DNA from: Yuukianura sp. NJ FZ-2021
Lineage: Eukaryota
Direction of reading: 5' to 3'
NCBI GenBank assembly: GCA_046563655.1
Contig: CM102287.1
Span: forward strand, 1,798,001 to 1,862,000
DNA length: 64,000 nt
Position 1 is the first letter of the stretch, and the number at the start of each line of letters is the position of its first letter. Shown here one piece after another: positions 37,501 through 58,143 of this stretch. The notes below the pieces were generated by a model. That model saw only the letters and a program-made list of their open reading frames with translations, did not search any database and was not told the DNA's origin. Made by a program: the position numbers and the translations under genes.

Positions 37501-38965
37501 AATAGCAAATAATGTTGAATGTTCAATTTTGATTTAGAAAATGTTATAATCGAATATTCCTTGAAATTCCATAGACAACTGAGTGATCGTGATTTCTAGT
37601 ATCAAAGTGAGAACTCCTGGTTTGTATCTGGAGTTAGGGCAAGCTCGACATTTCACCGGCACTTCTCGTTTGTGCTCAAAGATGAACCCTGACAACATGT
37701 GGTTCACTGGATGATTTTGTCGTTGATGCAGTACGACAAAGTGGACCGGTATTTGATGCATAAGATAAAGATGGTTATCAACGGTAACAAAGGTAAATTC
37801 CATGTTTTAGTGTTTCAGGCTTTGTTGTATAGTTCACCACTTAGTTAAACCTAAATGACTGTTAGATTTATGCACTTGTTGCATAGTAAAGTTGTGCTAA
37901 AATAAAATTTCGGATTGTTTTTGGACACAAGTTATTTAAGATGTCCTTTATTTGAAGTGAACGATGTTAGTAAAACATACAAAAGTATTTCGTAAAAATT
38001 CCAACCAATAATTGCAAATAATGGTGAATGTTCAATTTTTATTTGGAAAGTGTTATAATCGAATATTCCCTGAAATTCCATAGGCAACTGAGTGATCGTG
38101 ATTCCTAGTATCAAAGTGAGAACTCCTGGTTGGTATCTGGAGTGAGGGCAAGCTCGACATTTCACCGGCAGTTCTCGTTTGTGCTCAAAGATGAACCCTG
38201 ACAACATGTGGTTCACTGGGTGATTTTGTCGTTGATGCAGTACGACAAAGTGGACCGGTATTTGATGCATAACATAAAGATGGTTATCAACGGTAACAAA
38301 GGTAAATTCCATGTTTTAATGTTTCAGGCTTTGTTGTATAGTTCACCACTTAGTTAAACCTAAATGACTGTTAGATTTATGCACTTGTTGCATAGTAAAG
38401 TTGTGCTAAAATAAAATTTCGGATTGTTTTTGGACACAAGTTATTAAGATGTCCTTTATTTGAAGTGAACGATGTTAGTAAAACATACAAAAGTATTTCG
38501 TAAAAATTCCAACCAATAATTGCAAATAATGGTGAATGTTCAATTTTTATTTGGAAAGTGTTATAATCGAATATTCCCTGAAATTCCATAGGCAACTGAG
38601 TGATCATGATTCCTAGTGTCAAAGTGAGAACTCCTGGTTGGTATCTGGAGTGAGGACAAGCTCGACATTTCACAGGCACTTCTCGTTTGTGCTCAAAGAT
38701 GAACCCTGACAACATGTGGTTCACTTTGTGATTTTGTCGTTGATGCAGTACGACAAAGTGGACCGGTATTTGATGCATAACATAAAGATGGTTATCAACG
38801 GTAACAAAGGTAAATTCCATGTTTTAGGGTTTCAGGCTTTGTTGTATAGTTCACCCATTAGTTAAACCTAAATGGCTATTAGATTTATGCACTTGTTGCA
38901 TAGTAGAGTTGTGCTAAAATAAAATTTCGGACTGTTTTTGGACACAAGTTATTTAGATGTCCTTT
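1538..38965. repeat. 508-bp tandem satellite array, about 74 highly similar head-to-tail monomers
   Basis: Minus-strand ORF starts recur every 508 (occasionally 509) bp. Monomers differ mainly at a limited set of recurrent biallelic sites. Confidence 0.98.
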
Positions 38966-39023
38966 AGTAGCATGATTAGTCTATCCAAGAACGTAAAACG
39001 TTTTAGTTTCGTTGTGTGACTCA
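38966..39023 (+). repeat. Left terminal inverted repeat
   Basis: AGTAGCATGATTAGTCTATCCAAGAACGTAAAACGTTTTAGTTTCGTTGTGTGACTCA, containing the palindrome TAAAACGTTTTA. Confidence 0.92.
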
Positions 39024-42000
39024 AGGTAAATTTGCGTTCCGGATACCGCCCAAAGAGCAAGCACCAGAAAATGTTACTTCCTGGAGCAGGTTTCGAAACT
39101 TGATTGCAGGTAGCGCTCCTTCGCGGTAGTTTTTCAGAACGAGATGCTTCACTTTTGCGTTCTTCATGTGCGGCGGAAGCCAGTTGTTGTAGCATACAAG
39201 TTTCCACAACGCTAACCTAAACAAAAGAAACCTTTGGAACAAACTAAATTTTTCAACCGAAGTGTTATGTGACATACCTGTCAACCCGACTTTTCCATTC
39301 CCTTGACACAAGTCGCATCGTGTTGAGCTCATTATTGCTCAAATACGACAACACAAGGGCCATCATCTACACAAAGAATTGGTGGATACAGAAATATCAA
39401 AATCTTGCATATAAGCAGCATGGTTAGTGTGGCCAAGAACATAAAACGTTTTTGGTTCGTCAGTTGAGTCATAGAAATAGTCATTAATAAGTCAATTAAG
39501 AATGCAAGGTCAGTTTCAAAGTATGTTCTTTGAATGACAGGTTATCTTAAAACTGAAAGTCTGTGTTAGGTTTTAGGTTTAGGTTCCGAAGGCTTTTAAG
39601 TGAATCATTGGTCCAAAGTCCGATTTTTTTCATAGACACAAGGACAGTGGTGAGTCATTTTGGAATGTGTGAACATGAGAGTACAAAGTCCAGACGACTC
39701 TTGCAGTGACTCACCGACTTTGCCCGAGTCACACCAAATCTTGACGAATCTCACCGACTCCAGCCGAGTTTCACCGACTTTTGCCGAGTCTCACAGACTC
39801 TTGCCGACTCACGTCGACTTCTGGTCGGAAGCTTAGCTGTAACTAGACGGTTCGGAATACTTCTGAGCTGTGCTTTACCGACACATCTAGGCATCGAACC
39901 GAGTCGAGCTGAGATTTGCGTTAATCTTCATAATTCCTTCCGGTAGAGATAAAAGTGGGGTAGCATGGGAACCAATTCCTCGGATTTATATTTTCACTCA
40001 GACTGTAGTACAATGAAGAGAAAAGTGTGTCAATGCACAATATAATTTTGTGTTTAGTTAACGCACCCACCATCTCATTAGGTTCTTACATTGTATTCCC
40101 AACCATCCCACCACATTACATTAATTCAATGAGAGATATGCGGCGTAAAAGTGTCAAGAGACAGCACGGCTTCAAGTATAAATACGGTGATTTTAAAGAT
40201 CCCCAGAACTCGTTTCGTAATATGTGGGTATGTTTGTGTGGTGTATGGAAAAGAAGAGTGTGTGTTTATTGGGCCGATTCTATGTGAGAAAGAGAATGAA
40301 GTGCTTGAGAGAGCTCTTTGATTTTCGCTGGGGATGTCTGTATCCCGGCTTTCGTGAGAACGAAACCAACGTAGTCCAGGGACTTTTTCAAAAACTGGCA
40401 TTTAGGCTTGGATAGCCGGTAATTTGCCTCTCGCATTCGCTGCAGTATCATGGCCAGAGTTTGTAGGTGCTCTCGTTCCGTGCGACCGCTACAAACTGAA
40501 TCGTCCATAAAGGAACCGGACATGGGTATAGATTTCAAGAGTGTATCCATGAATTCTTGAAAGATCGCTGGGGATGAGGCAATGCCTTGGGGCAAGACAT
40601 TGTATCTATACAGTCCACGGTGTGTGTTTATGACGAGGCAGGACTTGCATGAGTCCTCCAATTCCACTTGGTGGAATGCATCTGGGCCATCAAGCCGTGA
40701 GAATGTTTCACCTCCTGAGACAAGTGAGAACAGTTCCTCCACGCGCTGTAAAGGATATTGGGTAACGTTCAGCTGGGCATTGACCGTGTGCTTAAAATCT
40801 CCGGTAATGCGTACACGTCCATTTGCTTTGGGAACAACAACAACTGGAGAGGCCCAATCGGAATGTTCGATTCGCGAAATGACGCCTGTCTTCTCCATTG
40901 TATCTAATTCCGCGTCTACCTTGCTGCGCAGAGCGAAGGGTATGGGACGGGCTTTGTAAAATTTTGGGACAGCATTGTCTTTCAGAATGACCTTTGCTTT
41001 AAATCCACGGATAGTCCCGTTAACCGGACCAAAAACGTCTGCGTACTCGTCTAGTAGAGCGTTAAGTGTCCATTGCTTGGGCAAATTGGGGGATACATTG
41101 TGACAGCGGGACTGGTCGACAAGTGCTATCTCCATTCCAAAGAGCCGTGTAAGATCTCTGCCAAAGAGACTCTTACCTTTTGAAACTGCAAATGTGTAAT
41201 TGCGTGAAATACCCTGATAGTTCACCTTGACCTCTAGTTCCCCGAGATGTTTGAACTTTTCGTCTGTGAAAGTACGGAAAACTTGACTCGACTTCCGTAG
41301 GGGTGGGGATCCAAGGGAGTTCCGCCAGAAGTTCTCGCTGAGGAGACTTGTTTTGCATCCACTGTCAAGTTCCATGACGTGGTTTACCCCGTTGATCTTG
41401 ACCAAGATCGTGTACTCGGCGTCGAGGGAGGGACCTTGCCGTACAGTATTGACATTCGAGACGTAGTTCTCCGAAGTGTCATGACCTACCGTGTGGGTTG
41501 TGTGGGGTTTCCTGCCATTCCGGCACATTTTCTTGAAGTGGCCACGTTTGCCACATGCGAAGCACTCTGCGTCCTTGTGTGGACAGTCGCGAGCGGTACT
41601 GTGGGCCTTAGAGCCGCAGTTAGGACATTGACTATTTCTGGAGGGCTGGGCTCCAGAAGGTCGGGATTGGGCGCTACCCCTCTGTGGGCCACCCCGGCCA
41701 CGCCCCCTACCACGATGTGGTGTCTGAAATGGGCGACGTGCCGTTGACGCAAAATTTACCTCTGAGGTGTTTGGATTGCGTATAACCATTGCACTGGTGT
41801 CCGCAGCTTCGTGCGACACCGCGACCTTGAGAACCTCCTCCAAGGTCACCTCATCCTCTTTAGTGAAGACCGCCTTCTGGGCACGCTCGCTTGTTAAGCC
41901 AAAGATAAATTGGTCTCTTAAGTGGTTTGGGAGGTTGGTACCAAACTTGCATGTAATCGCCATTTTTCGCAGGGCTGCGAGAAATGCGGATACGGATTCG

Positions 42001-45000
42001 CCTGGGCGCTGTTTCCGTAATGAGAATTTGTATCTCTCTGCGAGGGCTTTAGGGGCTGGTTTAAAGTGATTCTGCAGGGTTGTGATCAAGGTCTTAAGCT
42101 CCGCCTTGAGTGGTGAAATTGGTGATAGCAGATTCACTAGCAAGGAATATGTGGATATTCCGAGGGACGAAAGGAAAATGCCGGCGCATTTCTTTTGCAC
42201 GTCCGCGTCAGTGGATTCTGAGCTAAGTCCATTCGCTACGAGGAATGACTTATAGACATCCACCCAATCTTCGAAATCATCGCTTGATGAATCGAAGGGT
42301 TTTAGGGTTCCAACAATAGCAGTGGCCATGTTATTGTCCTGGAATAATTGGGCAAGTATTGCTGGAAAAGAGGGATGAGTTTTGGGCTTTTACTCTCGTC
42401 GCCAAAATGTGTGGTGTATGGAAAAGAAGAGTGTGTGTTTATTGGGCCGATTCTATGTGAGAAAGAGAATGAAGTGCTTGAGAGAGCTCGAGCTTTTATA
42501 GCTAAGACTTACGTGCTAAGAAAGGTGGGAGGAAAGTTGCATCAGCAATGATGCCTAAACTGGAAATAACTAGTTTCTGTAATTACGTAGTTTCTTACGT
42601 ACATTACAGTTTGTAATTTGTGTAATGTTTGTAAAATAACCTTCAAAAGTAATTAATACCAACAGAGATTCAAAATGACAGCCAGGATGCAAATATTTAC
42701 AACTGAAGGCAGACAACATGAATGATTTTTTCCAATACCAAGATTGACCAAGAGTATAATTAACTTTTCTATATATAAAAAAATCAAATATTTTCTAATT
42801 CCGCTTCTCTGTAAAAGTGGAGTATAGTATTCCACACCACTACCACCACCAGCATCACCACCACCACCACCACCACCACCACCACCACCGCCACCACCAT
42901 AATTCGTTATAAACTTAGCGCTAACGAAATTTTCTTTAGTTGCAAGTTTGTTTCCGCAGAGTGGGAACGTGCTGTATTTGGGATAATACTACCCATCCTA
43001 GCTCTACAATAATTGTAATATACGCTATGAACGTCTACTGCGGAGTTTGTGGCATTCCTTTTTCTCGAGCGGAAGGAGCTATAGCTGCAGGAGCCGGGGA
43101 GGTAGCACCAAAGGCCGGTTCGTCTGTGACAGAAGCCGGGGCGGGAGTCGCCAAGTCCGGAGCGGGAGTACCCGGCGCGGTAGGAGCGGGAGTACACGGC
43201 GCGGTAGGAGCGGGAGTACCCGGCGCGGTGGGAGCGGGAGTACCCGGCGCGGTAGGAGCGGGAGTGACCAAGGCCGAAGCGTATCGAGCGGGAGTGACCA
43301 AGGCCGAAGCGGGGGGAGCGGTAGCGGATGTTGCAGAACCGGATCCTCCCAGGCGCCGAAGAGGCCGACCGCGCAAATGCGTTGGGATTTCGCCAGATGT
43401 GTTTGCCACGCAACGCACTTTGCGACCAAGGATCAAACGCTTTTAAAAAAATCCTATTTGTTTCAAAAAGTTTTTTTTTTTGACTGAATAAACTGAATAA
43501 AACTTTTTTTCGATGGTGAAAAATTGTGAAATCAGGAACGGATTTTTGATTGTATATACAAAATTACATCAATTCAAAAAAGTTTTTCTGTTTGCAACTG
43601 AATAAATCCTTCTACTAATTTCTGTGGGTTGCCTACAGTCGTGTGCTGAATAATTTCGCACAAACAGAACCACCACCTCGCACCTACCGCCACCACCACC
43701 ACTACCACTGTGACGGTGGTGTATTTCCCCACCGTCAGAGGAGTAGGGGGGACCCGCGCAGGGCAGCAGAAGAGGAGGAGAGCAGCAGAGCCACGAGGCA
43801 AAGAGGACCACACCGCACAGCACAGTTTAGCTTTTAGTCTCATTTTAGTCTTTAGATCTTTATTCTGCGAATAAAGATCAGTCTCTTTCTTGGCTCACAC
43901 GCGGATGGTCGTCTCTTCCAGATCTTTTCTCGGGTTGACCGGGGGTCAACTCTACACCACCACCACGACGACGACGACCACCCACCACGTTCCGAAAACC
44001 ATTTGGTGGGAGTGTTGGGCTAAGAACGTGTCATGAGGGAACTATACGGAGGGGGATTGTAATAAGATATTACGAGGGAATTGCAGGGAAGATTAAGAAC
44101 ATATTACGAGTGTGTAGTGCAGCGGCCAGCAGGTTTGTCATGATAAATCTGAAAACTCAAGTTCGGTTTCTAGGTTTGTTTCCCGCTTAGTTCTTTTTAA
44201 CAGTATCTAACCAAATCTATTTTTGAATTGAAAGCTTAAATCATGGAAGGCTTGAAATGTCAATGTTCTTGTATGATGTACACACGCGCCCTGAGGAACT
44301 GAAGGCAGACGATGCGTAGGTTAAGTACCTAACGTAACCTGGCCCGTTGTGACTAATCGTTTATATTACGAATTAAATTCGTAAATCCTCGTGTGCATAT
44401 AACCTGCGAATCTGGATGGGAAGTTATCATTCAGAAAGACATGGAGGGATTTATGAACAATTTGGGGGTACATATGAAAGTTTGGGGAGACTAAAAATAT
44501 ATTCCGAGGGTACAGTGGGGTGACTATAAAAGTAGTTACCTACCAGTTGTAGGTTAGTGGACTAGGCGCACGGACCTGGGAAAATACATAATAAGGTGTA
44601 AGTCCGTCACAGTTCAGTCCCGTTGGTATAAGTATGCATCAACCGCTCTTTGCCGGAACTGACGTAGCAGACCTTCGTGCGTACCTACGAGAGGAAGCCT
44701 TAAGTCCTGGAGGCCCACGTGGAGTCGACTGTTACGCCCGTGCTCTTTTTGCCATCGATCGACCAGGCTCAGTTATCGAATCAAATTTAAATGAATTCAA
44801 ACAATGTACCCTCGACGCAGTTTTCTACCACTGGCACCTCGACGTTGAAGAGTTCTGTAACTCCAGCACTTGGTGTCACTCACTCTTCGTATCAAGAAGT
44901 CGAGAATTCTCCGGAATTTGCAGAGGTATGTTTGTTGAACGATTCTTTACTCTGCTCGGAAGATTTCGGCGCGGCGCCATCGCTGACTACGTCGACGCCG

Positions 45001-48000
45001 AGTTGCGCAATACGGACGCATCCAGTCTCTACAAAGGGATTGTGTACTTCACAACTTATCAACGAAACTATTTTGCGCGCTGGTGGGAACTGCGACCAAT
45101 TCGTGCCACCTGTAGTTCATACCGATTCTACTTGTGCCCAAATTCGTCGAATTATCGATCTGCCGATTCCGTCATGGTTCGCTGCGATGATGTTTGATAA
45201 CCCATTCTTGGAGATAAGAAGTTGAAGCTGCTTCATCGGGACTACATCACTTAGTGTCGATGCTAATCTTGGCTGTATGAAAAGGGTGTCTAGTTTGAAC
45301 CTCGCAACATTGCATCCGTGTTGAGTGAAGCAGGTCAATCCTAAGCACAGTCAATTCGTAAGCATGAACAATTCGTAAGCAGAAAATTCGCAAGCATGGC
45401 AAATTCGTAAGCACAGTCAGTTCGTAAGCATTCTCCAATCGTAAGCAAATTTTTTCGAATGCTTGTGTTTTCGTTTCGTAGGTTATGTGTTTAAGCTTTA
45501 AAATTGATGCTCTGTTAGGTTAGGCTAGGTTAGGTTTTTTAGATTATATTTTCTTCAAAATTTTGCAATTGAAATAGGTTTCACGAGGCTTACAAACGCA
45601 ATGCTTACGAATTCACCATGCTTACGAATTTACCGTGCTTTAAAATTTTAGCTTACAAAGTTGAGCTTACGAACTGACTGTTTACGAATTTGAGCTTACA
45701 AATTGACCTGGAACCGTGTTGAGAAGCTGACATGGTATCATGCAGTTGGATGTGAGTTGAACATTGATGTAGATACTCCAACATGCTGTTTGTGGGGGCG
45801 TGTGGGCTGCCAAGGAAGAAATTGTATGGTGATGTTTAAAACTATTATTTTTCAGAAATCACTTTCGTAAAATAGCTCCGTTTTGCGTTTTGTGCAATAT
45901 TAAAAAAAATTGATTTTTTTGTAAATGATTTTGATTTGTAAATGATTTGTATGTTTTGTACATGATTTGTATATTTTGTAAATGATTTAAGATGAATCTT
46001 CATCAATTTCACAACATCCAAAAACATTGCTGTCCATTCAATTTTTCTCAATTCAAACATATTAAAAAAAGTTTGCTTTCATTTGAATTGATACTGATTT
46101 GCTTTCATTTGAAAGTTTGTACGTTCGAAGGCAAAAAAAAAACGAAATTTACTTTTCAATGTACAAGGAGGATCAAATGTTAATAAACATTTGCGTAAAT
46201 TTGAAGAACTAGAAACACGACAACATACTGTCCATAGAATTCTTGAAAAAAACAACAAGGTAGGGCAATGCTCAAAGGGGTTGAGCATAGGTCTTCTGGA
46301 GGGAGTTGACAATTGATGCGACTTAAACCGGCCTGCCTCAAAACTGTAGAAGAACTGAGAAGCCGTTTTCATGTAACTGATGCACCAAAACATCGCTTAA
46401 ACTTTTCAGTGCGGGTGGTGTGAGGTACTACTTCGTGCATGAGTTGCACCAGAATTGGGTTGGCAATTCTACCATTTAATTGCAACAAAATTATGTTTCA
46501 GTTTTGAGCCCCAAAATATTTGCACTAAATTGATGTTCTTAATTTTTGAGCAAGATGCACATAATGTATTATCGGTGTTGATAAGGCAATGTACTCTTAG
46601 CGAAAAAATTTTGCAAAGGCAAATTTTAACCCTGCCAAGCACTGTTTCCATATTATGAGTTTAAGCCAAATTTTCTACCCTCTAGTTAAGTATTAAATTA
46701 ACAACGTAACTAAACATAGTGTCAGAAAATGACAGGGTCAAAACTTCGTTGTTTAAATATATTTTGAGTGTAATCGAAACCAAAACGTTTTCGGGAAACG
46801 ACTACACTGCGTCTGCGTAACGTGGCCGCTCACTTCGACGCTGTTAATTCTAGAATTTTAGTGCAATGTAGACCTACTGCAAACTCTTGAGCCAAACATA
46901 ACCCCCCGACTGCGATAGGGCTTATGTTTCAGTGGAAAGGGTCCTAAAAAGTGTGACGGACGGACAGACAGACAGACAAAGTCGTATCAATAGTCTTCTT
47001 CAGCACGTCGCAGACGTGCGTCTCCAGAAGACTAAAATTACAAACCAAAACAAAAGATGTTTATTGTACAAGGAAAAATTTTCCGGTTACTAGAACCAGG
47101 GAGCAAAACAACACCCCTTTCATTACTTTTTGAAAGAGATTCTGAAATTCTTGTGGATGAGGAGGAAGAGGAGGATGACGAATGTAATACATTTGGTACA
47201 ACACCAACCTGATCTCCAAAACAACATGACCTAAGCTCTAGACCAGTTCGAACCTTGTCAAAAAAAAAACAAATTTGGGAACCATAAATGAGATTTTTTT
47301 TTCACAAAAAAAAAAGCTGACGTTTGCAGGGACGGGCGCGCGCGCGGTCCCAGCTTTGCCATGGTGGGTTTTAAACGCAACATGCGACGTGGGGTGTTAA
47401 TCCCTACTACCCACGTGGGTTTAAACCCTGCGTGCAACTTGGGTTTAAAACCCTGCTTGCAATTTTTGAAAATGCACGCAGGGTCTAAAACCCAAGTTGC
47501 ACGCAGGGTTTAAACCCACGTGGACACTACGAACTTGGTTTTAACCCTGCATGCAAATTGAGTTTAAACCCTGCGTGCAACTTGGGTTTAAACCCTGCGT
47601 GCAACGTGGGTTTAAACCCTGCGTGCAACTTGGGTTTAAACCCTGCGTGCAACTTGGGTTTAAACCCTGCGTGCAACTTGGGTTTTAGCCCTGCGTGCAA
47701 CTTGGGTTTAAACCCTGCCTCCAATTAATCCAAATTTGACAAACATAAATTATAGTTACAACCAGTTCAGCAGAAAAAAAAGTTAACTGTTACAGGATCT
47801 GATATTTTGAAAAAACAAGTGCAGGGAACGGATGCAAAGAAAAAGTTTGCAAACTCTATGAAATGCAGTAGTATTATATTAGTTGATAAATGTAAAATTA
47901 ACCATTTAGGTTAGGTTAGGTAATGAAATGAAATGTAAAAATGAAAATTAGAAAAGGTTCTAAAAAAACATCAGCTTGCCAAATTTGGGAGGCATTTTTT

Positions 48001-48966
48001 TTTCAAAGTTCACATCTATATTTTCAGAATGTTGAGAAACCCATTTGAATTAGGCATAGACTGCACAAATGACCTTAGACTTTGGAATATAGTCATTCAG
48101 AGTTTTTTGCTGCAACACGTATACTTCCAATCGTTCTTAAACAAAATATGCTCAGTTGACTATTCGCAGAAGCTCTACTGCTTAAATTTTTTCCTAAATT
48201 TAAAAAGGACGCCTTGTTATTTAATCAGACATTCGAAAAGACCAAATTATAAATTCAATACAAAAATTTATTCACAAGATTAAGTTCGGCTCCAAACTCA
48301 AAGTATGACACACTTTCAATGTTCAATGCGTCGGACGGGACACTTATGACATATCGTCAAGAATGTTCAATAACGCAGATTTGGTTAAACAAATTGCATT
48401 TCGTTTTCCTGCTTTTACAATTGCTATCAAGTATTCCAACTGATTTGAGTTTAATTTTGACTCTTGATCTTGATCCGACGAGTCCGATTGCATCTCATCG
48501 TCATCTTCTTCGTCAGCCTCCGAATAGCTCTCTGAGCCTTCATTTTCCTCATTGTCCTCGCCATCGTCATCTACGGCGCCCACAATTGTTCGCAAACCGT
48601 CCAAAGTGAGTCGATGAGCCCCGACGTCGGCATTGTGTAGAGCATGTAAGATCAGTGATATGCTGGATTTGCTCATTCTAACCTAAAGGTTGCTAACCTA
48701 ACCTTTGGGGTAATGTGAGAATTACCCGAAATTTCCTAAGTTCCACGTATATTAACAACATTTAACCATCGTACCTACTCTGGACGAAGTAGTTACATCA
48801 GCACAATCAAAACACACGTATACGGGTACATTTCTCACAGTGCCCCAGTTTCAGGAATATGCGAAAACAGGGTTTCATTCTTATGTTGTCCCTCACAAGC
48901 AAAATTTAAACACCCAACCCAACCCCTTACCTCAGTTGGAAGGCTTTCAAACATGGAGTCTTGCAT
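39021..48966 (-). CDS. Spliced F-box protein gene, 106 aa (exons 48966-48931, 39366-39278, 39216-39021); intron 1 expanded to about 9.6 kb by nested TEs
   Basis: Manual splicing at GT-AG sites gives MQDSMFESLPTE|MMALVLSYLSNNELNTMRLVSREWKSRVD|RLALWKLVCY..., which fits the F-box pattern LP-E...L-SYL...L...VSR-W...LW. Intron 2 is 61 nt. The join of exon 1 to exon 2 is phase 0 but is inferred across 9.6 kb. The stop codon falls in the left TIR. Confidence 0.7.
39414..39471 (+). repeat. Third, diverged TIR copy; probable end of a nested, inverted relative of the element
   Basis: AGCAGCATGGTTAGTGTGGCCAAGAACATAAAACGTTTTTGGTTCGTCAGTTGAGTCA matches the reverse-complemented right TIR at 50/58 and the left TIR at 45/58. 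Confidence 0.8.
39695..39825. repeat. Degenerate repeat of about 10-bp period with a CCGA(C/G)T core
   Basis: CCGACT, CCGAGT and GACTC cores recur at roughly 10-bp spacing. Confidence 0.6.
40266..42329 (-). CDS. Gag-protease-reverse transcriptase polyprotein, truncated before RNase H/integrase
   Basis: Zinc knuckles CPNCGSKAH...C and CFACGKRGHFKKMC, protease LDSG, and RT motifs WASPVVVVPK, LPQG and FMDD. Retroviral sequence ends at ...SPAKIK (40317), after which the ORF reads into the LTR remnant. Confidence 0.92.
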   Translation of the reverse strand: MATAIVGTLKPFDSSSDDFEDWVDVYKSFLVANGLSSESTDADVQKKCAGIFLSSLGISTYSLLVNLLSPISPLKAELKTLITTLQNHFKPAPKALAERYKFSLRKQRPGESVSAFLAALRKMAITCKFGTNLPNHLRDQFIFGLTSERAQKAVFTKEDEVTLEEVLKVAVSHEAADTSAMVIRNPNTSEVNFASTARRPFQTPHRGRGRGRGGPQRGSAQSRPSGAQPSRNSQCPNCGSKAHSTARDCPHKDAECFACGKRGHFKKMCRNGRKPHTTHTVGHDTSENYVSNVNTVRQGPSLDAEYTILVKINGVNHVMELDSGCKTSLLSENFWRNSLGSPPLRKSSQVFRTFTDEKFKHLGELEVKVNYQGISRNYTFAVSKGKSLFGRDLTRLFGMEIALVDQSRCHNVSPNLPKQWTLNALLDEYADVFGPVNGTIRGFKAKVILKDNAVPKFYKARPIPFALRSKVDAELDTMEKTGVISRIEHSDWASPVVVVPKANGRVRITGDFKHTVNAQLNVTQYPLQRVEELFSLVSGGETFSRLDGPDAFHQVELEDSCKSCLVINTHRGLYRYNVLPQGIASSPAIFQEFMDTLLKSIPMSGSFMDDSVCSGRTEREHLQTLAMILQRMREANYRLSKPKCQFLKKSLDYVGFVLTKAGIQTSPAKIKELSQALHSLSHIESAQ
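42395..42404 (-). promoter_or_regulatory. Primer-binding site, probably tRNA-Ser(GCU)
   Basis: TGGCGACGAG lies 5 nt inside the 5' LTR and is complementary to a tRNA 3' end ...CTCGTCGCCA. Confidence 0.7.
42832..42899. repeat. Imperfect (CAC)n microsatellite
   Basis: Run of CCACCACCA...; shorter CAC runs also occur near 43670-43710 and 43955-43990. Confidence 0.9.
43027..43446 (+). pseudogene. Internally deleted paralog of the RING/AT-hook gene (139 aa: N-terminal CxxC, Gly-Ala-Val repeats, AT-hook tail)
   Basis: Starts MNVYCGVC (compare MIICSIC). Ends RRRRGRPRKCVGISPDVFATQRTLRPRIKRF versus KRRRGRPRKCVGISPVVLSTHRSLRPKIRRF in 49483-51124. Lacks the rest of the RING and the coiled coil. The frame is open, so it may be expressed. 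Confidence 0.7.
44634..45197 (+). CDS. Intronless hypothetical protein, 187 aa
   Basis: ATG-initiated ORF with ordinary amino-acid complexity, GC-richer than its flanks, TATAAAA about 110 bp upstream. No motif recognised. Confidence 0.4.
   Translation: MHQPLFAGTDVADLRAYLREEALSPGGPRGVDCYARALFAIDRPGSVIESNLNEFKQCTLDAVFYHWHLDVEEFCNSSTWCHSLFVSRSREFSGICRGMFVERFFTLLGRFRRGAIADYVDAELRNTDASSLYKGIVYFTTYQRNYFARWWELRPIRATCSSYRFYLCPNSSNYRSADSVMVRCDDV
45326..45713. mobile_element. Foldback/MULE-like MITE, about 390 bp
   Basis: Flanking direct repeat CCGTGTTGAG (45316-45325, 45714-45723; true TSD 8-10 bp). CAGGTCAAT / ATTGACCTG near the termini. Arrays of TTCGTAAGC on the left and inverted GCTTACGAA on the right. 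Confidence 0.75.
46254..47035 (-). mobile_element. HINE (non-autonomous Helentron derivative, DINE-1-like)
   Basis: On the minus strand it starts TAGTCTTCTGGAGACGC...AGAAGACTA plus a (GTCY)n microsatellite, and it aligns by eye for about 420 bp with 56848-57265. The 3' end has subTIR CTCCAGAAGAC (about 46301-46291) then hairpin ATGCTCAA-N5-TTGAGCAT (46268-46288). Inserted in a T-rich target. Confidence 0.85.
47411..47720. repeat. 24-bp minisatellite with palindromic core GGGTTTAAACCC, including a 113-bp inverted repeat (47411-47523)
   Basis: Unit CTTGGGTTTAAACCCTGCGTGCAA is tandem at about 47530-47720. Forward and inverted copies face each other at 47411-47523. Confidence 0.9.
48344..48676 (-). 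CDS. Hypothetical acidic protein or exon, 110 aa
   Basis: ORF with a D/E-rich core, preceded by a possible acceptor ...TTAG. No domain recognised. Confidence 0.35.
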   Translation of the reverse strand: MSKSSISLILHALHNADVGAHRLTLDGLRTIVGAVDDDGEDNEENEGSESYSEADEEDDDEMQSDSSDQDQESKLNSNQLEYLIAIVKAGKRNAICLTKSALLNILDDMS

Positions 48967-49057
48967 TGCCCCAACTTCTTCTTCTTCTTTTTTTTTGATT
49001 TGTGTTTGATATTTCTCTCGCAAACGATGTGTTGCGAACGAGAGGAAGTTCAGGCAA

Positions 49058-49254
49058 TTATATACCCCAGACCAAAAATGTATGAAACGTTCCATTCAGG
49101 TTGGGGCGTCCAAGGTCAACCGAACTGTCACCACACGAGAGTCCAAAGTCAACACCGATGAGCTCACCAAGGACAATGGGGCTGAGTCCAGGGTTTGCTT
49201 TGAAGTGAACTTCCTACCCTGCCATCTACTATATGGCATGAGGGTCCAAGGTCA
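49058..49254 (-). promoter_or_regulatory. Putative promoter of the F-box gene: TATA box plus a cluster of nuclear-receptor extended half-sites
   Basis: TATATAA (minus strand) at 49064-49058, about 90 nt upstream of the ATG. CCAAGGTCA at 49110 and 49246, CCAAGGACA at 49167, CCAAAGTCA at 49143. Confidence 0.5.
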
Positions 49255-49482
49255 TGTGCCCCCAAATCTAACTTCTCAACGTAACTGTTGCAAATCTAAA
49301 CTTGTTCAATTGGTATACTAAAACATCAAATTACTGTGAAAAGAATCAGAATTGCGTATTTTAATAAGAAATTCGATTTGACAAAATCAAAGAAAGTGTT
49401 GTGCAATGATAGTTGAATCATATTTACTTCTGAACTTTTTTTTTAATCAATTTCCAAATAACTTTGTGCAAAGAAAAACAAT

Positions 49483-51124
49483 TTAGAAGCGTCTGATCTT
49501 GGGTCTCAAGGAGCGATGCGTGGATAACACAACTGGTGAAATACCGACGCATTTGCGTGGCCGGCCTCTTCGTCGCTTGTGTAGATCGGTTCCAGAAGCA
49601 CCCGCTCCGGTTCCCGAAGCACCCGCTCCGGTTCCCGAAGCACCCGCTCCGGTTCCCGAAGCACCCGCTCCGGTTCCCGAAGCACCCGCTCCGGTTCCCG
49701 AAGCACCCGCTCCGGTTCCTGAAGCACCCGCTCCGGCTCTTGAAGCACACCTATCAGCTCCTTCCGCAGCGGCACTTGTCACACCCACGGCTGCTGCCGC
49801 ACTCACTCCGTCTCCCACTCCTGGCGTCACCGAAGCTGACGGTCCGTTTGCTGCTGCTGGTTGAAACTCCCTCTTGATAGTCATGCTGGACAGCTCCGAC
49901 CTCAAGCGAGCAAGTTCATCAACGGCTTCCTGCCTACTGCGGTCAGCTGCTGAAGCCCCAGCTTCGGCAAAATATGCAGAATCCCGTGCATTGCCTAGTT
50001 GTTCTTGTAAGTCGAATATTCGTTGTCCGTACGACGAACAAGATTCGTCCATCTGACGTTGCAAAGTGTCCATTCTCGCAGCTGATGAGTACTGCTCTTG
50101 AGCCAAACGAATCTTCTCAGCATGAACCTGAGCTTCGGACTCAAGTAGCCTTGCACTCAACTGCTCAACTCGGTTCTCGGATGCTGAAAGTCGCTGGTTC
50201 ATGCCGCTCATCACTGCAGTGTTGCTTGCCAAAGTTTTTTCCCTGAAGAAAACAACATACACAAACAATCATGAATGGAAATCAAATTGCAGCAAATTCT
50301 ACTTTTTTTTTTGTGAAACTTACCACGACTGCGTTTGGGATTTCAGTTCATTTTGTTTTTTTTCCAGCTCCAACTGGAGCTGAATGATGACCCTACTCTT
50401 GTGGGCAGAACCACATTCTACTTCAGTAGCTCGACGTGTTCTAAAAATTTAGCAAACCAACAAAATTTATTCTTTGTTTGCAAACGATTCCAAACATGTA
50501 AGATCAAAAAAAATAATTCACACTTACAAAACATTTTGCATAGGCAAAGATGCAACCCTCCCTTGAATATCATTGAGCACGGTCCGAATCTCACCGAGAA
50601 AAGCACTGAAACAAAAGCATACATTTAACTATTTAAAAAAATATTTCATGATAATAATAATAATTTTACAAACCTGGTGTTCTGGTTTTCGCCAGAAACA
50701 TAAGCCCCGTCGTGAGCGGAGAAGTAGATTCTCCGCCCATCAACTCGTTCGCCCATAGTTTTGACGACAGCATAACACACTGGACATGGTGTCCTGCAAA
50801 AAAAACAAGCAGATTAAAACCTCACTTAAAAATATTTTTGAGTTATAAACATTAACTTCGAATTAAAAAAAAAACTTACTCAACTTCGTTTTGATGCCCA
50901 AGGCATCCTGGGTTTTTCGACGCCGCCCAGTTGATCATGCACAACCTAAAAAAAAAGACACATCAAACGTTTGCTGCATTTTGGAAAAACACAAACTACA
51001 AAAAAAAACTTTTTTTTCCTTACCAGTGCAACACGTGGTTGCACTCGGTGACCACGACCACCGACTTCGGATCTGAAGGCGGGTGTTCCCCAAGCACTTC
51101 CCGACAGATTGAACAGATAATCAT
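49483..51124 (-). CDS. Six-exon RING-H2 / coiled-coil / Gly-Ala repeat / AT-hook protein, 413 aa; putative E3 ubiquitin ligase with TRAIP-like architecture
   Basis: Exons 51124-51024, 50945-50880, 50793-50674, 50605-50528, 50440-50324 and 50242-49483. All five introns are GT-AG and phase 2, and the join has no stop. Translation: MIICSIC...TECNHVLHWLCMINW...TPCPVC...RIYF, then a heptad-like L/E/Q-rich region, about 7 x GAGASGT, then RRRGRPRK. Confidence 0.88.
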
Positions 51125-51510
51125 TTCCAAATCGACTTTTTTGCCACTTTAAACTGTTGACTAACTGCACACATATCAACCTTGAGTCGTTCGTATTTAG
51201 ATATAACGATCAACGAGGACTTAAAACAAAACCACATCAGATGAATTTCAGATTTGTGCAAGCAACGCGCATTTTACACGGGTCAAAGGTCGGAATGAAC
51301 GCGCACCAAGAAAGTGACACAATGACACATACGACATATTTCCGTGCACATTCCTACAAACGTTTCAAGGACATATTACAAAAATAACTACAGCAACTAT
51401 CACTGACTCATTTTTAAAAAACACTCGCTTTCGAAAGAGAGGAAGATTCAAGTTGCACTCGAACGACAAACGTTTGACCTTAACCTTGCATTCTTCATAA
51501 CTTCTTCCTG

Positions 51511-51568
51511 TGACTCACCTAACGAAACTAAAACGTTTTACGTTCTTGGACACACTAATCATGCTACT
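51511..51568 (-). repeat. Right terminal inverted repeat
   Basis: Reverse complement is AGTAGCATGATTAGTGTGTCCAAGAACGTAAAACGTTTTAGTTTCGTTAGGTGAGTCA. Confidence 0.92.
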
Positions 51569-52588
51569 TCCTTTATTTGAAGTGAACGATGTTAGTAAAA
51601 CATACAAAAGTATTTCGTAAAAATTCCAAGCAATAATTGCAAATAATGGTGAATGTTCAATTTTTATTTGGAAAGTGTTATAATCGAATATTCCCTGAAA
51701 TTCCATAGGCAACTGAGTGATCGTGATTCCTAGTATCAAAGTGAGAATTCCTGGTTGGTATCTGGAGTTAGGGCAAGCTCGACATTTCACCGGCACTTCT
51801 CGTTTGTGCTCAAAGATGAACCCTGACAACATGTGGTTCACTGGATGATTTTGTCGTTGATGCAGTACGACAAAGTGGACCGGTATTTGATGCATAAGAT
51901 AAAGATGGTTATCAACGGTAACAAAGGTAAATTCCATGTTTTAGTGTTTCAGGCTTTGTTGTATAGTTCACTTAGTTAAACCTAAATGACTGTTAGATTT
52001 ATGCACTTGTTGCATAGTAAAGTTGTGCTAAAATAAAATTTCGGATTGTTTTTGGACACAAGTTATTAAGATGTCCTTTATTTGAAGTGAACGATGTTAG
52101 TAAAACATACAAAAGTATTTCGTAAAAATTCCAACCAATAATTGCAAATAATGTTGAATGTTCAATTTTTATTTGGAAAGTGTTATAATCGAATATTCCC
52201 TGAAATTCCATAGGCAACTGAGTGATCGTGATTCCTAGTATCAAAGTGAGAACTCCTGGTTGGTATCTGGAGTGAGGGCAAGCTCGACATTTCACCGGCA
52301 CTTCTCGTTTGTGCTCAAAGATGAACCCTGACAACATGTGGTTCACTGGGTGATTTTGTCGTTGATGCAGTACGACAAAGTGGACCGGTATTTGATGCAT
52401 AAGATAAAGATGGTTATCAACGGTAACAAAGGTAAATTCCATGTTTTAGTGTTTCAGGCTTTGTTGTATAGTACACCCATTAGTTAAACCTAAATGGCTA
52501 TTAGATTTATGCACTTGTTGCATAGTAGAGTTGTGCTAAAATAGAATTTCGCACTGTTTTTGGACACAAGTTATTAAGATGTCCTTTA
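51569..52588. repeat. 508-bp satellite, about 2 monomers
   Basis: Resumes in phase after TSD TCCTTT; one monomer has a 3-bp deletion near 51970. Confidence 0.95.
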
Positions 52589-52637
52589 ATTCAATTCAAT
52601 TCTTTAATCTCGGGAAGCGTCCTGCATGCAGGTTGTT

Positions 52638-53221
52638 CCCAACTAGAAACGAAACTTAAATTCATGTTAATTTAACGTTGGAAGTGTGAAAAATCAGTGA
52701 TGTTGTAAATTATAACCGGACTCTGTATTTACAACATAATTTCAACTATTAATTTAGAAGTTAAAATAACGTTGGGGTGATGTGTTTTTATAACAAGTTT
52801 ACAACGCATCATTCTACAACTGTTACCAATTTTGCGAAAATAAGCTAAATTTAACGTCGTTTTAACTTGTGGTGCTGTAGTAGGAGGCGCAACGTTATTT
52901 TCACCTCTTTTTCACATCGCTCCCGCTCTTCTCCGTAACCGGCATGACTGCTAGAAAAGGATAGTGAGACTCCAACAATGTGAGTTTGTGGAAGTGGTGC
53001 AGAGCATAGGAGTGAGAGGAAGAGAAGGGAAGAGAAGGTGGGAGTGCAAAGCTCCACACGGGAGTTATTTTTTTTCACTCTCGCAACAAAAATGCAACGT
53101 TATGTTTTTCCACACTCTCAACATTTTTTTCGCGTGGAAAGCGCGGCCACAAATCACTTTAGCGCAACGTTACGTGGTAACAGAAATAAAACGTTGTTTT
53201 AACTTTCGATTTCTAGTTGGG
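52638..53221. mobile_element. 584-bp MITE with CCC...GGG termini and 2-bp TT duplication (CMC/EnSpm-like), nested in the LINE 3' UTR
   Basis: CCCAACTAGAAACGAAACTTAAA at the left versus reverse-complemented right end CCCAACTAGAAATCGAAAGTTAAA. TT at 52636-52637 and 53222-53223. Confidence 0.75.
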
Positions 53222-53374
53222 TTACGCTTCTTGCAGAAAATTGATACAGAGTTTAACAAATATTAATGTTGAGTTAAGGTAACTTGCTTAGTATTATCGT
53301 TTAAAAGTTAGGATAAAAACAAAGATAAAAATGAATAGTTTGAAAATGAAAATGAAAACAGCAGTGATTCGTCC

Positions 53375-55739
53375 CTAAACATAACCTGCAACAGCATCAA
53401 TGCAAGACAGATTGCAAACATTATCGTCATTAATAGTAAAATCATTAAAATGTGATGTTACATGGGTATTCAGGAAATGGTCAAAAAGCTTAAACCTTTT
53501 AACAGTTTTGAGGTCTAATTCGGGAGGTAATTCACTTGTGATACGGGCAACCGTTTGAATGAGTGACTTTTTATGAAAATTCGGGCAAATTGGGAAGTAA
53601 TGGCGGCGTCGAGTTGACTTCGGTTGAAGTGTGGCATTTTCAATTGAGTCGATCATGCTGTCAAAGAATGAGTTTTTTGATCTAAGAATGGTGAGGTAGC
53701 AACTTAGCGTTTCATATGCTGTCATAGCGTTAAGAGGCAACCAGCCGAGGTTGGTAATTTGTGATGTGATGCTATCCCACTTTGAAAGATTCAAAACAAA
53801 TCTAGCACATCTTCTGTAAAGGTTATTCACTTTCTTTAGTTTGGATTTTTGGGACTGACTGAAGATGACAAGCATGTATTTGAGAATTGGGATTACGTAT
53901 GATGTCACCAAGATTTTCCGGTTGTGCTCGTCAAGGAAATGTTGAAGAGGTAGTAAGTTCCAAAGCGCTGCATTGCCTCTTTTCACAGTTGCGTCGATAT
54001 GTGTGACCCATGTCAAGGACTGGTCAAGGAAAAGGCCTAGCGACTTGATATGTGGTAAGTTTTTGATTGTTGAGTTTCCAACTTTGATCTCGGTTACTCC
54101 AATGCTTTTCAAAATACCCGGTTTCCCAATTATGATGAATTGCGTTTTTTCGGGGTTGATTTTGAGACGGTTGTGTGTCATCCACTCTACAATTGAAGTG
54201 ATGTCATCTTCCAGTTTCTTTAAGAGATAGATTTGGTGGTCCAGAAATGATGAGTGTAGTGTCATCAGCATAGAGAATCGTTATTGAATGTCGTACTGCA
54301 AGTGGCAGATCATTTATCATGATGTTGAACAGGAGAGGTCCAAGAACAGATCCCTGTGGAACAGACAAAATTGTTGGTTTAATTTTTTAAAATTGTAACC
54401 CTAATTTGACTTGTTGGTGACGATGGCCAAGATATGATTCAAACCAGTCTGAATCAATATTGTACCACCGTAGCTTTTGGAGAAGAATGTCTTTGTCGAC
54501 GGTGTCAAACGCCTTCTTGAGATCTAAGGAAGCAATTAGGCTGATGTGGTCTTTGTGCATGTTCTTGTACAATTCCTCAGTTACTCCAATTTGAGCCATG
54601 GTGGTGGAGTGATGTTTCCTAAACCCAAATTGTGCCGAGTATAGAAGTTTATTTTTCTCAAGATGTTTACTGAGTTGTTCGTGAGCAGCTTTTTCTAGAA
54701 TTTTGCTGATGATTGGTTGTGTTGAAATTGGGCGCATGTCAGATGGATGTTCTGGATTCTTGATTTTTGGAATGGGTACAACAATTGAATGCTGAAAAAT
54801 CGGTGGGAATATTTTTGTTGAAAAGCTCAAGTTCACAATTTTTGTCAACTGTTCGTAGATTACTGGGGCGCAGATGCAGTGAGAGAACATCCAGTGTGAA
54901 AAACCCAGAGAGTCAAGTGTTGTTGACTGCTTCTTGGTAATGGACTTCCAAATACGTTTTATATCACTTGTGTAAATGGGCCTTAATATCATCTGGTCAA
55001 CTGTTGTTGATAGTTTAGTAGGTTTAGTGGGCCTAACTGTTGATACTTCAGATGGGGTTGTGATGGAGGTAAAATAGTCACTGACATCATCTGCAGTCAT
55101 TTCCTGTTGAAAGGATGAAACTGAGGCAGGCCGTAATCGTTGTAGTAGTTTGTGGACCCCATGCTTCTGAATTTCCATGTTAAGATGGTTTTTCCTGTCA
55201 AGAAATACGCTTTTTTTGATTTGTTTGTTTAAATCAAATACTTGACACTTGATTTCAGGAACGGACAAAAATGGTAGTAGTGTTTGTCGTTCACTCAGTA
55301 AGATCTTCGTGTGTGGAGACATATAGAATCGTTTTGGGCTTTGAATCACTGAAATTCGTTTCACAGGAATGACTTTGTCAAATGCACATTTAACTTTAGA
55401 TGTAAAGTCCTGAAGGAGGTCACTTACACTTACATTTCCATCAGAAAATTCAGTTTGGACAATGTTTTGACCTAACTGTTCAAAGTCACATAATTTGTAG
55501 TCTTTGGTTAGAAAAGTCAAACGTGGACGTTTGGGTTTGGACAAATTGATGTTGGCGTAGACGAGGCAGTGATCCGAAATTCCAGGGTCAATGACACCAC
55601 TCTCACAGATTATTGAGTTTGAACTCGTGTATAGTAAATCAAGTAAACTGTTTCCTCTGGTTGGTTCAGTAATCAGCTGACTAAAACCAGACTCTATTCC
55701 GACATTCTCAACAACACTTTTTAGCGAGGAGGGTACATA
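53375..55739 (-). pseudogene. LINE ORF2 (partial AP endonuclease plus reverse transcriptase), disrupted
   Basis: Motifs QLITEPTRGNSLLDL...[31 protein letters not shown] and YADD. In-frame stop at 54387-54389 and a frameshift near 54220. Confidence 0.9.
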
Positions 55740-56848
55740 CCTTTATTTGAAGTGAACGATGTTAGTAAAACATACAAAAGTATTTCTTGAAAATTCCAAC
55801 CAATAATTGCAAATAATGGTGAATGTTCAATTTTTATTTGGAAAGTGTTATAATCGAATATTCCCTGAAATTCCATAGGCAACTGAGTGATCGTGATTCC
55901 TAGTATCAAAGTGAGAACTCCTGGTTGGTATCTGGAGTGAGGGCAAGCTCGACATTTCACCGGCACTTCTCGTTTGTGCTCAAAGATGAACCCTGACAAC
56001 ATGTGGTTCACTGGATGATTTTGTCGTTGATGCAGTACGACAAAGTGGACCGGTATTTGATGCATAAGATAAAGATGGTTATCAACGGTAACAAAGGTAA
56101 ATTCCATGTTTTAGTGTTTCAGGCTTTGTTGTATAGTTCACCACTTAGTTAAACCTAAATGACTGTTAGATTTATGCACTTGTTGCATAGTAAAGTTTTT
56201 CTAAAATAAAATTTCGGGTTGTTTTTGGACAATAGTTATTAAGATGTCCTTTATTTGAAGTGAACGATGTTAGTAAAACATACAAAAGTATTTCTTGAAA
56301 ATTCCAACCAATAATTGCAAATAATGGTGAATGTTCAATTTTGATTTGGAAAGTGTTATAATCGAATATTCCCTGAAATTCCATAGGCAACTGAGTGATC
56401 GTGATTACTAGTATCAATGTGAGAACTCCTGGTTGGTATCTGGAGTGAGGGCAAGCTCGACATTTCACCGGCACTTCTCGTTTGTGCTCAAGGATGAACC
56501 CTGACAACATGTGGTTCACTGGATGATTTTGTCGTTGATGCAGTACGACAAAGTGGACCGGTATTTGATGCATAAGATAAAGATGGTTATCAACGGTGAC
56601 AAAGGTAAATTCCATGTTTTAGTGTTTCAGGCTTTGTTGTATAGTTCACCACTTAGTTAAACCTAAATGACTGTTAGATTTATGCACTTGTTGCATAGTA
56701 AAGTTGTGCTAAAATAAAATTTCGGATTGTTTTTGGACACAAGTTATTAAGATGTCCTTTATTTGAAGTGAACGATGTTAGTAAAACATACAAAAGTATT
56801 TCTTGAAAATTCCAACCAATAATTGCAAATAATGGTGAATGTTCAATT
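55740..56848. repeat. 508-bp satellite, about 2.2 monomers
   Basis: Resumes in phase after CCTTTA and ends at GTTCAATT, where the Helentron begins. Confidence 0.95.
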
Positions 56849-58143
56849 AGTCGTCTGGAGACGCATGTCTACGACATGCTGAAGAAGACTATTGATACGA
56901 CTTTGTCTGTCCGTCCGTCCGTCCGTCCGTAACGTTTTTTAGTACCCTTTGCATTGAAACATTACCTCCATTATTGACGGGGTGTCCTGTATCGCTCAAG
57001 TGTTTTCTCTACCTCTACATTGCACTCAAACTGCTTTATTAACAATGCAGAATTGTGCGGCTACTTTACGTACCCGCAGTTTCGTGGCATAGCGAAGACA
57101 TTTTGGTTTCGTTTACGCTCACAATGTATTTAAACAACGAATTTTTGATCTGGTCATTTTCTGGCAAGATGTTTAGTTACGTTGTTAAATTAAGCCTTTT
57201 TAGCGGGTTGAAATTCCGGCTTAAATGTTTAATATGTGAATAGTGCATAGCATGGGTCAAAATTGCATTTTACTATTTTTCATAATTTTCATAATTTCGA
57301 TTTTCACAATCGATATTCGACCCCTCGCTCCAGCGTTTATTACATACATAATGTGGGATACATAAACGTTGAATTGTGCATTTGCATAAACCAATTTTAG
57401 TCTTCTGGAGACGCATTTATAATTTCGATTTTAACAATGATATTCGACTCTATAGCTTATGACTTAATTTAATACATTGTGAATTAACATGAAACGATGA
57501 GTATTTTAAAGAAACTATATTTGACTCTTCCTAATTTTGTGCATTTTGCACACTTATTGCACACGAATGTAAAATTATGCAGTTACTTTGACGCTGGGTA
57601 ATGGACGTTGTTATTTCAAAAATTGAGCATACTTGAGAACAAACGTGCGTCAAAATAATTTTATGAGAGTAAAAACTGTCATAGCTTAGTTTTAACATTT
57701 TGATGCAAACGGTTTTTAAACATCATTTTGAGGCATCGTGATTAACACTGAGTTTACTATTATATTGTCATGGGGATGCACAATGCAGTCATAGGTTGTT
57801 GAGTAAGTTGCTTATTGCTATCAATCATGTATAAGAAATTTTTATCATTTTGAATTACTAATTTTAAACAAACAATATTTGACTACTTAACCTCGACCTT
57901 CAATTTTGTTCGAATACAGTCTACTCTTAAAGATACCTTTTCGTCTTCCTCATTCTTCTTCGACTCTCATTCAAGTGTTTAGTTTATAGTTTAATTCTCT
58001 ATATTCAGTTCTATTTTTGAGTGCATAATTTTAATTTTAGATAAACGTTTATCTATTATCTTCGGGTAAGAATGTTTTTTAATCTTAATGTTGTACTCAA
58101 AGTATGCTCATTTACATTTCACTTCATTATTTCAGATAGAATT

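Follow-up and report, generated by a model that had tools for sequence, protein, structure and literature searches.

An intact RING-H2 gene with an AT-hook-type tail, predicted to lie in a mobile-element insertion within a satellite array of Yuukianura sp.

What is an intact, intron-bearing gene doing in the middle of a satellite array, and is its product directed at that array? The question is raised by a 64,000-nucleotide stretch of Yuukianura sp. NJ FZ-2021 (assembly GCA_046563655.1, contig CM102287.1, positions 1,798,001 to 1,862,000; hereafter the window, in whose numbering all coordinates are given), where a gene on the minus strand at 49483-51124 appears to join a RING-H2 finger to a C-terminal AT-hook-type motif. 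A preliminary description of the locus, made from the letters alone, had spliced this gene into a 413-residue protein, likened its RING and coiled coil to the layout of TRAIP and NOPO, recognized an AT-hook at its C-terminus and proposed, from the 508-bp satellite around it, that the protein could deliver ubiquitin ligase activity to AT-rich satellite or heterochromatin of that kind. Our analysis leads to a different reading, to which we give a probability of roughly 55%: the gene is intact, looks like an orphan and encodes a dimeric RING-H2 ligase that ends in a flexible linker and an AT-hook tail, and it was carried here in an insertion that is bounded by terminal inverted repeats (TIRs) and has Maverick-like ends.

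A six-exon gene with a complete RING-H2 ligand set

The presence of an intact six-exon gene was confirmed (Table 1). Splicing of the exons yields a coding sequence (CDS) of 1242 nt, that is 413 codons and a TAA stop, with an open frame throughout and an in-frame stop nine codons 5′ of the ATG; the exon coordinates, the five phase-2 introns and the protein length of the preliminary description were all reproduced. The introns, which are 78, 86, 68, 87 and 81 nt long, are all of the GT-AG type, with a GTAAG donor in four cases and GTTTG in the fifth, and a pyrimidine tract precedes each of the five acceptors. Their GC content is 16-28%, against 44-56% in the exons and 54% in the CDS as a whole. 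Because every intron falls after the second base of a codon, the lengths of the four internal exons are divisible by three, and the frame would therefore survive the skipping of any one of them. At equal phase odds, five introns sharing a single phase would be a roughly 1-in-80 event. The ATTAAA that follows the stop codon is a possible polyadenylation signal.

The RING-H2 ligand set is complete only once the exons are spliced, since C4, C7, C28, H30, H33, C36, C59 and C62 are split across exons 1-3. The consensus of the RING-H2 finger, whose Pfam clan includes zf-RING_2 and zf-rbx1, is C-x2-C-x(9-39)-C-x(1-3)-H-x(2-3)-H-x2-C-x(4-48)-C-x2-C, and residues 4-62 of the spliced protein, which read C-x2-C-x20-C-x-H-x2-H-x2-C-x22-C-x2-C, satisfy its spacing. 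None of 200,000 composition-preserving shuffles of the 413-residue protein produced the pattern, and the full ligand set that had been described is upheld. The spliced translation also has Ile6 between ligands 1 and 2, Trp40 four residues after ligand 6 and Pro60 after ligand 7, which we take to be the usual positions of E2 contact in RING domains, while the residue after ligand 8, presumably the position of the basic 'linchpin', is a tyrosine.

The inputs to Pfam, HMMER and AlphaFold2 were single exons or pieces rather than the whole spliced protein. With exon 1 alone, Pfam returned seven matches, six of them to RING families (E = 0.0012-0.043), all under their cut-offs; the best, to zf-RING_UBOX, had an E of 0.0012 and 19.2 bits where the cut-off is 25.2, and each of the six spans approximately the first half of its profile. 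Exons 2 and 3, scanned separately, gave no RING match. All ten of the named ESM-Atlas neighbours listed for exon 1 carry RING families, with scores (0.86-0.88) that fall short of the mark of 0.9 and so provide a lead only.

A heptad-patterned helix, a flexible linker and a basic tail

From its N- to its C-terminus the protein consists of the RING-H2 finger, a heptad-patterned helix of about 180 residues, a disordered linker of about 95 residues and a basic tail of 34 residues. The coiled coil previously placed after the RING was recovered as a long helical region: the occupancy of the heptad a/d core over residues 97-285 is 0.509, a value equalled in none of 2000 shuffles, and AlphaFold2, run on the exon-6 translation as a single sequence, predicted helices at exon-6 residues 2-91 and 96-119, with block means of the predicted local distance difference test (pLDDT) of 66-95. 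Exon-6 residues 124-245, with pLDDT below 50 in the same run, are predicted to be disordered.

When exon-6 residues 1-125 were modelled as a homodimer, the score was 0.55, compared to 0.14 for the best of three controls. Over three runs at least 95% of the contacts agreed and the partner pLDDT was at least 87, and the contacts join each residue to its own counterpart, as in a parallel, in-register pair. In calibration, 21 of 30 microbial proteins with a solved paired structure, and none of 23 single chains, came up to the mark used for dimers; for eukaryotes the counts were 17 of 29 pairs (7 of 16 in animals) and none of 30 single chains. Only one of seven eukaryotic pairs without an older solved relative reached it, and the coiled coil of the RING/AT-hook protein may pass the mark through likeness to solved ones. 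On the model, the protein would probably dimerize in the cell.

The tail carries 12 Lys/Arg and a single Asp/Glu in its 34 residues. In the excerpts of the literature that we draw on, an AT-hook is defined by a GRP core with K/R flanks (PMC11354804), and KRRRGRPRK at residues 383-391 satisfies this definition. A nearly identical tail (R-G-R-P-R-K-C-V-G-I-S-P, with a terminal R-F before the stop) closes a second open reading frame (ORF), which lies on the plus strand of the same 12.6-kb island of non-satellite DNA and converges on the RING gene. The likeness was detected by tblastn (E = 1.2e-6), and also shows at the DNA level as the inverted repeat I1 (134 nt, 77%). Their last 34 codons are separated by 11.0 synonymous and 10.0 non-synonymous differences, giving a synonymous divergence (dS) of 0.57, a non-synonymous divergence (dN) of 0.15 and a dN/dS of 0.26, which suggests that the AT-hook tail may be under purifying selection as a module.

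Elsewhere the two genes are unlike. The second ORF contains Gly/Ala-rich repeats of 24 and 30 nt that are distinct from the linker repeats of the RING gene, and three-frame translations and tblastn revealed no RING or coiled-coil remnant upstream of it and no degenerate RING copy in the left arm of the island. We dropped the possibility that the second ORF arose from the RING gene by deletion, because the DNA upstream in each (5′ regions) aligned with a local score of only 24, under the shuffle maximum of 30. Read from its first ATG, the second ORF has a C-x2-C knuckle at residues 5-8 (43027-43062), while that of the RING gene is at residues 4-7; with no DNA likeness behind common descent, the shared start may be chance.

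An insertion bounded by terminal inverted repeats

The 12.6-kb island (38966-51568) stands between two satellite blocks, and the RING gene lies 386-444 nt inside its right end, reading inward. A 58-nt TIR pair falls exactly on the satellite borders and is enclosed by a target-site duplication (TSD), so that the junctions read TCCTTT / AGTAGC...GCTACT / TCCTTT. Across the island the satellite breaks off at monomer position 346 and picks up at position 340, and a further 76 copies of the target stand uninterrupted in the array. The first 15 nucleotides of the TIR, with up to two mismatches, were matched three times where 0.04 matches were expected, namely at each end of the island and at a second, inner left end starting at 39414. 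To judge from its sequence, the island is a mobile-element insertion into a pre-existing satellite array, and the RING gene, being inside a TIR-bounded insertion with a TSD, is a passenger of mobile DNA in that array.

TSDs are 8 bp long in hAT elements, 7-8 bp in P, 5 bp in Transib and 4 bp in piggyBac. Ginger elements were excluded, since the portions of the source used here give them TSDs of 4-5 bp and TGTNR ends (PMC2836005), in contrast to the 6-bp TSD and AGTAGC ends of the island. Vertebrate Mavericks, as excerpted from PMC8097293, have 6-bp TSDs, TIRs of 46-1447 bp, sizes of 12.7-24.6 kb and the end motif 5′-(AGT)2//(ACT)2-3′ or (AG)3...(CT)3. The island is like these elements in its 6-bp TSD, in its 58-nt TIRs, which lie inside that range, and approximately in its size; its ends agree with the motif at five of six bases on each side, the comparison set being vertebrate. 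It differs from Mavericks in that the ORFs scanned yielded none of their core genes, which encode a protein-primed polymerase B, an integrase, an ATPase, a protease and capsid proteins. Mavericks that carry cargo have been reported in nematodes (bioRxiv 10.1101/2022.07.12.499685, in excerpt).

Among the island ORFs scanned, the only Pfam match besides low-complexity noise was the RVT_1 domain of a nested long terminal repeat (LTR) retrotransposon fragment. Its truncated gag-pol ORF is flanked by identical 82-nt direct repeats (40235-40316 and 42408-42489), whose 100% identity suggests a recent event. Nine island ORFs compared with PHROGs gave nothing meaningful, and Rfam had no matches in the whole window. 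An ORF of 200 codons (44595-45194) had no Pfam or PHROG match, an AlphaFold2 mean pLDDT of 34, too low for the model to be of use, and ESM-Atlas neighbours at 0.87-0.89, again a lead only. Short tandem and inverted repeats occupy 45330-45650, where a 17-nt unit contains TTCGTAAGCA, and 47397-47724, where a 24-nt unit contains GGGTTTAAACCC; either block may represent the ends, or the subterminal repeats, of other elements nested here.

Table 1. Coordinates of the RING gene, of the insertion around it and of associated features in the window.
Feature	Position	Strand	Remarks
Exon 1	51024..51124	-	ATG at 51124-51122; RING ligands C4, C7, C28, H30, H33
Exon 2	50880..50945	-	66 nt; ligand C36, conserved-type Trp40; 22-residue loop begins
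Exon 3	50674..50793	-	120 nt; C59 and C62 as ligands (C-P-x-C); hydrophobic R-I-Y-F stretch follows
Exon 4	50528..50605	-	78 nt; heptad-patterned region begins
Exon 5	50324..50440	-	117 nt; heptad-patterned region
Exon 6	49483..50242	-	760 nt; long helices (residues ~163-280), disordered Gly/Ala/Ser/Thr region, basic tail
Stop codon TAA	49485-49483	-	
ATTAAA	49442..49447	-	36 nt past stop; read from sequence
21-nt tandem repeat	49587..49748	-	7.7 copies, 97% matches; encodes 7-residue Gly/Ala/Ser/Thr linker unit
AT-hook-type motif KRRRGRPRK	49552..49578	-	residues 383-391; found by regular expression
Second ORF	42940..43446	+	168 codons stop to stop; 139 from ATG at 43027
Left TIR	38966..39023	+	begins AGTAGCATGATTAGT; inverted pair I3, 58 nt, 91% complementary
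Right TIR	51511..51568	-	inner edge 386 nt upstream of RING gene ATG
TSD TCCTTT, left copy	38960..38965	+	satellite monomer positions ~340-345
TSD TCCTTT, right copy	51569..51574	+	
Inner second left end	39414..39520	+	direct repeat of left TIR; 65 nt, 85% complementary to right end
Nested LTR-retrotransposon fragment	40235..42489	-	gag-pol ORF, RVT_1 E = 3.3e-23; truncated
Satellite blocks	1-200, 1538-38966, 51569-52591, 55740-56848		

Competing explanations and the satellite

In the reading we favour, a 12.6-kb TIR element would have landed in one 508-bp satellite monomer and brought the RING gene with it as a passenger. The coiled coil would join two RING domains and two AT-hook tails into a bivalent E3 ubiquitin ligase, tethered to chromatin, that would bind A/T-rich minor grooves generally and not the 508-bp satellite in particular. 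That the gene is expressed, and that its product has ligase activity and binds DNA, we infer from the sequence; the gene itself may belong to the element as cargo or have been captured from the host. If expressed, it would hold in one chain a RING ligase, a dimerizing coiled coil and a minor-groove hook, which CBX2 and RING1A/1B, as described in the excerpts cited below, divide between them. Among the papers listed in a literature search we met no protein that combines a RING and an AT-hook in one chain, which is not proof of absence in print. The locus thereby raises a checkable question, namely whether chromatin-directed ligases are cargo of the large DNA transposons of this organism.

Several results weigh against this reading. 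The RING call rests on the spacing pattern and on half-domain matches under the cut-off, because Pfam saw single exons. The C-terminal AT-hook of the preliminary description stands as a GRP core with K/R flanks but not as a Pfam domain: AT_hook (PF02178) scored 10.0 bits on the tail against a cut-off of 17.4 (E = 0.97), with nine of the 13 model positions matched. The dN/dS of the tail comes from 34 codons only, and the gene shows no sign of codon bias, GC content being lower at third codon positions (0.48) than at first positions (0.59). Pfam scans of the island, which covered 57 of its 93 ORFs of at least 55 codons and two more, the remaining 34 being those that overlap the RING gene, the tail ORF or the retrotransposon fragment, found no transposase, integrase, polymerase, ATPase, protease or capsid domain. 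The element would therefore lack autonomy, belong to an unknown family, or have begun as a short TIR element that was later filled. In the last case the interior may consist of later insertions piled up between the TIRs, the gene having been brought by one of these or otherwise; on each view it would have come to the array with inserted DNA.

To these is added the lack of any homologue of exon 6, exon 1 or the tail in the searches run. Among 8000 candidates of near length scored against exon 6, none reached E<=0.001. A phmmer search of the 252-residue exon-6 translation against 1.84 billion representatives gave 22 matches at E<=0.001, in 19 of which the best stretch lies within query residues 103-234, which cover the Gly/Ala/Ser/Thr-rich low-complexity region (~124-220), while the other three start in the helical region; the six matches inspected were simple-repeat proteins, and none was a RING-protein relative. 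Compared with longer proteins, the exon-1 ORF had four candidates, none at E<=10, and the 41-residue tail had 13 candidates and no relative. Searched with phmmer, the PDB gave no match to exon 1 and two chance matches, to glucansucrase repeats, for exon 3, and the viral contigs gave one locus, aligned only over the Gly/Ala repeat. The gene could be an orphan, either young or in decay, or its lineage could simply be missing from the databases.

The missing homologues and the absent codon-bias signal would also suit a neutral passenger, captured or duplicated and still intact from youth, that is unexpressed or functionless and whose tail is at most a nuclear localization signal rather than a hook for DNA. 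K-R-R-R does suit a monopartite nuclear signal, the 97% matches of the 21-nt repeat point to recent slippage in the coding region, and the second ORF looks truncated, with only the tail. The surroundings fit as well, since the site is dense in transposable elements and flanked by satellite, with an LTR fragment, a non-LTR element and a Helitron within 12 kb. However, 413 codons are open, all five introns are well signalled and the eight metal ligands are kept, and the two tails differ mainly at synonymous sites. At the proportions observed (0.40 of synonymous sites, pS, against 0.135 of non-synonymous sites, pN), free drift of both copies since duplication is not expected, and we regard this explanation as unlikely, if deserving of attention.

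A bolder extension, for which we see a slimmer chance, is that a Maverick-like, virus-like family of transposons has a chromatin-tethered ligase of its own, with the RING/AT-hook protein and the second tail ORF among its cargo or accessory genes. Such a ligase could clear landing sites of host chromatin or silencing factors, or could hold the element on A/T-rich heterochromatin, and an element-borne ligase would parallel those of some DNA viruses. The available excerpts of PMC3447814 describe ICP0 of herpes simplex virus 1 as a RING E3 ligase that acts at centromeres, which offers an analogy in being a RING E3 ligase from a mobile or viral genome. The RING/AT-hook gene differs from it in having five introns. 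We know of no AT-hook in ICP0.

Still less probable, in our estimate, is that the gene is the organism's single-copy orthologue of vertebrate TRAIP and Drosophila NOPO, an E3 ligase of replication and mitosis, at a repeat-rich site and with a lineage-specific basic tail. TRAIP has an N-terminal RING followed by coiled-coil motifs in the excerpts at hand (PMC4700480, PMC6212796), and the present protein fits this layout, with its RING-H2 at residues 4-62, helices after it and a modelled dimer; the gene also has introns and is therefore not a retrocopy. The likeness is one of layout alone, and this is the part of the TRAIP/NOPO comparison in the preliminary description that we could retain. The C-terminal PCNA-binding PIP box, conserved in vertebrate TRAIP according to the parts of PMC4700480 consulted, is missing: neither a PIP box (Q-x2-[ILMV]-x2-[FYWH][FYWL]) nor an APIM was found in the whole 413-residue protein, although this is weak evidence, as documentation of the PIP box is limited to vertebrates. 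The C-terminus is instead a Gly/Ala/Ser/Thr repeat with the AT-hook tail, and 22 residues loop out between ligands 6 and 7. The six inspected phmmer matches of exon 6 likewise argue against orthology, and a TIR/TSD-bounded, mobile-element insertion is an odd site for an essential single-copy gene.

The idea of satellite targeting has a known precedent. In the excerpts of PMC13371928, the AT-hook of CBX2 brings PRC1, with its ligase subunits RING1A/1B, to A/T runs of the mouse major satellite, and its core, R-G-R-P-R-K, is identical to that of the RING/AT-hook protein; likewise D1 is localized to AT-rich satellites by its AT-hooks (PMC11354804, in excerpt). The hook and the RING of CBX2-PRC1 are on separate subunits, whereas here they are in one chain. 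HMGA and D1 share with the present protein a GRP core with K/R flanks in a disordered region, which here is predicted; as excerpted, they differ from it in having several hooks and no enzymatic domain, compared to one hook (two per modelled dimer) and a RING here, and its tail is under the Pfam AT_hook cut-off.

The 508-bp monomer itself proved to be real, with 78 copies in register, and is only moderately AT-rich, with a GC content of 36%. Its A4T and A5T runs number 67 and 20 per 10 kb, much as in nearby non-satellite DNA, where the island, the distal 7 kb and the non-LTR element have 48-60 and 13-32 per 10 kb. The monomer shows no clear excess of long AnT runs, a point of difference from the CBX2 case. 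The RING gene stands beside satellite because the element transposed into the array, and adjacency is uninformative on function when a gene has arrived on mobile DNA, so that the earlier argument from the array in which the gene sits fails. Despite a canonical, K/R-flanked GRP core and a modelled dimer that would present two hooks, an E3 ligase directed to the 508-bp array or to similar AT-rich heterochromatin is the least probable of these explanations, given A/T-run densities near flank level, an adjacency accounted for by transposition and one hook per chain, far below HMGA (three) or D1 in the sources as excerpted.

The minus strand of the monomer (e.g. 51999-52445) contains a stop-free frame of 148 codons that covers 447 of its 508 nt and has no Pfam match. 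The frame is intact in 47 of the 75 monomers with the marker peptide and shortened in the rest, a fraction that by a rough estimate fits neutral decay and thus suggests that the satellite was derived from a once-coding sequence and is not a tandem gene array.

Two further insertions interrupt the array. A non-LTR retrotransposon (52592-55739; RVT_1, E = 1.5e-14) with a target duplication of about 9 bp sits in another satellite monomer, which it breaks at positions 349/341, almost the identical site to that of the TIR island (346/340). The T-rich monomer site CCTTTATTT was thus struck by two of the three insertions in the array and may be an insertion hot spot. The third, a 1.3-kb insertion at 201-1537, resembles a small non-autonomous DNA element, with a 6-bp duplication (CTGGAG), subterminal inverted repeats and, at 431-642, a 72-nt tandem repeat. 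Beyond the array, Helitron-like ORFs on the plus strand (58045-63107) are split over several frames and match Helitron_like_N (E = 4.7e-19), PIF1 (E = 2.6e-16) and DUF6570, and the first of them contains 6.5 copies of a 63-nt tandem repeat (58285-58691).

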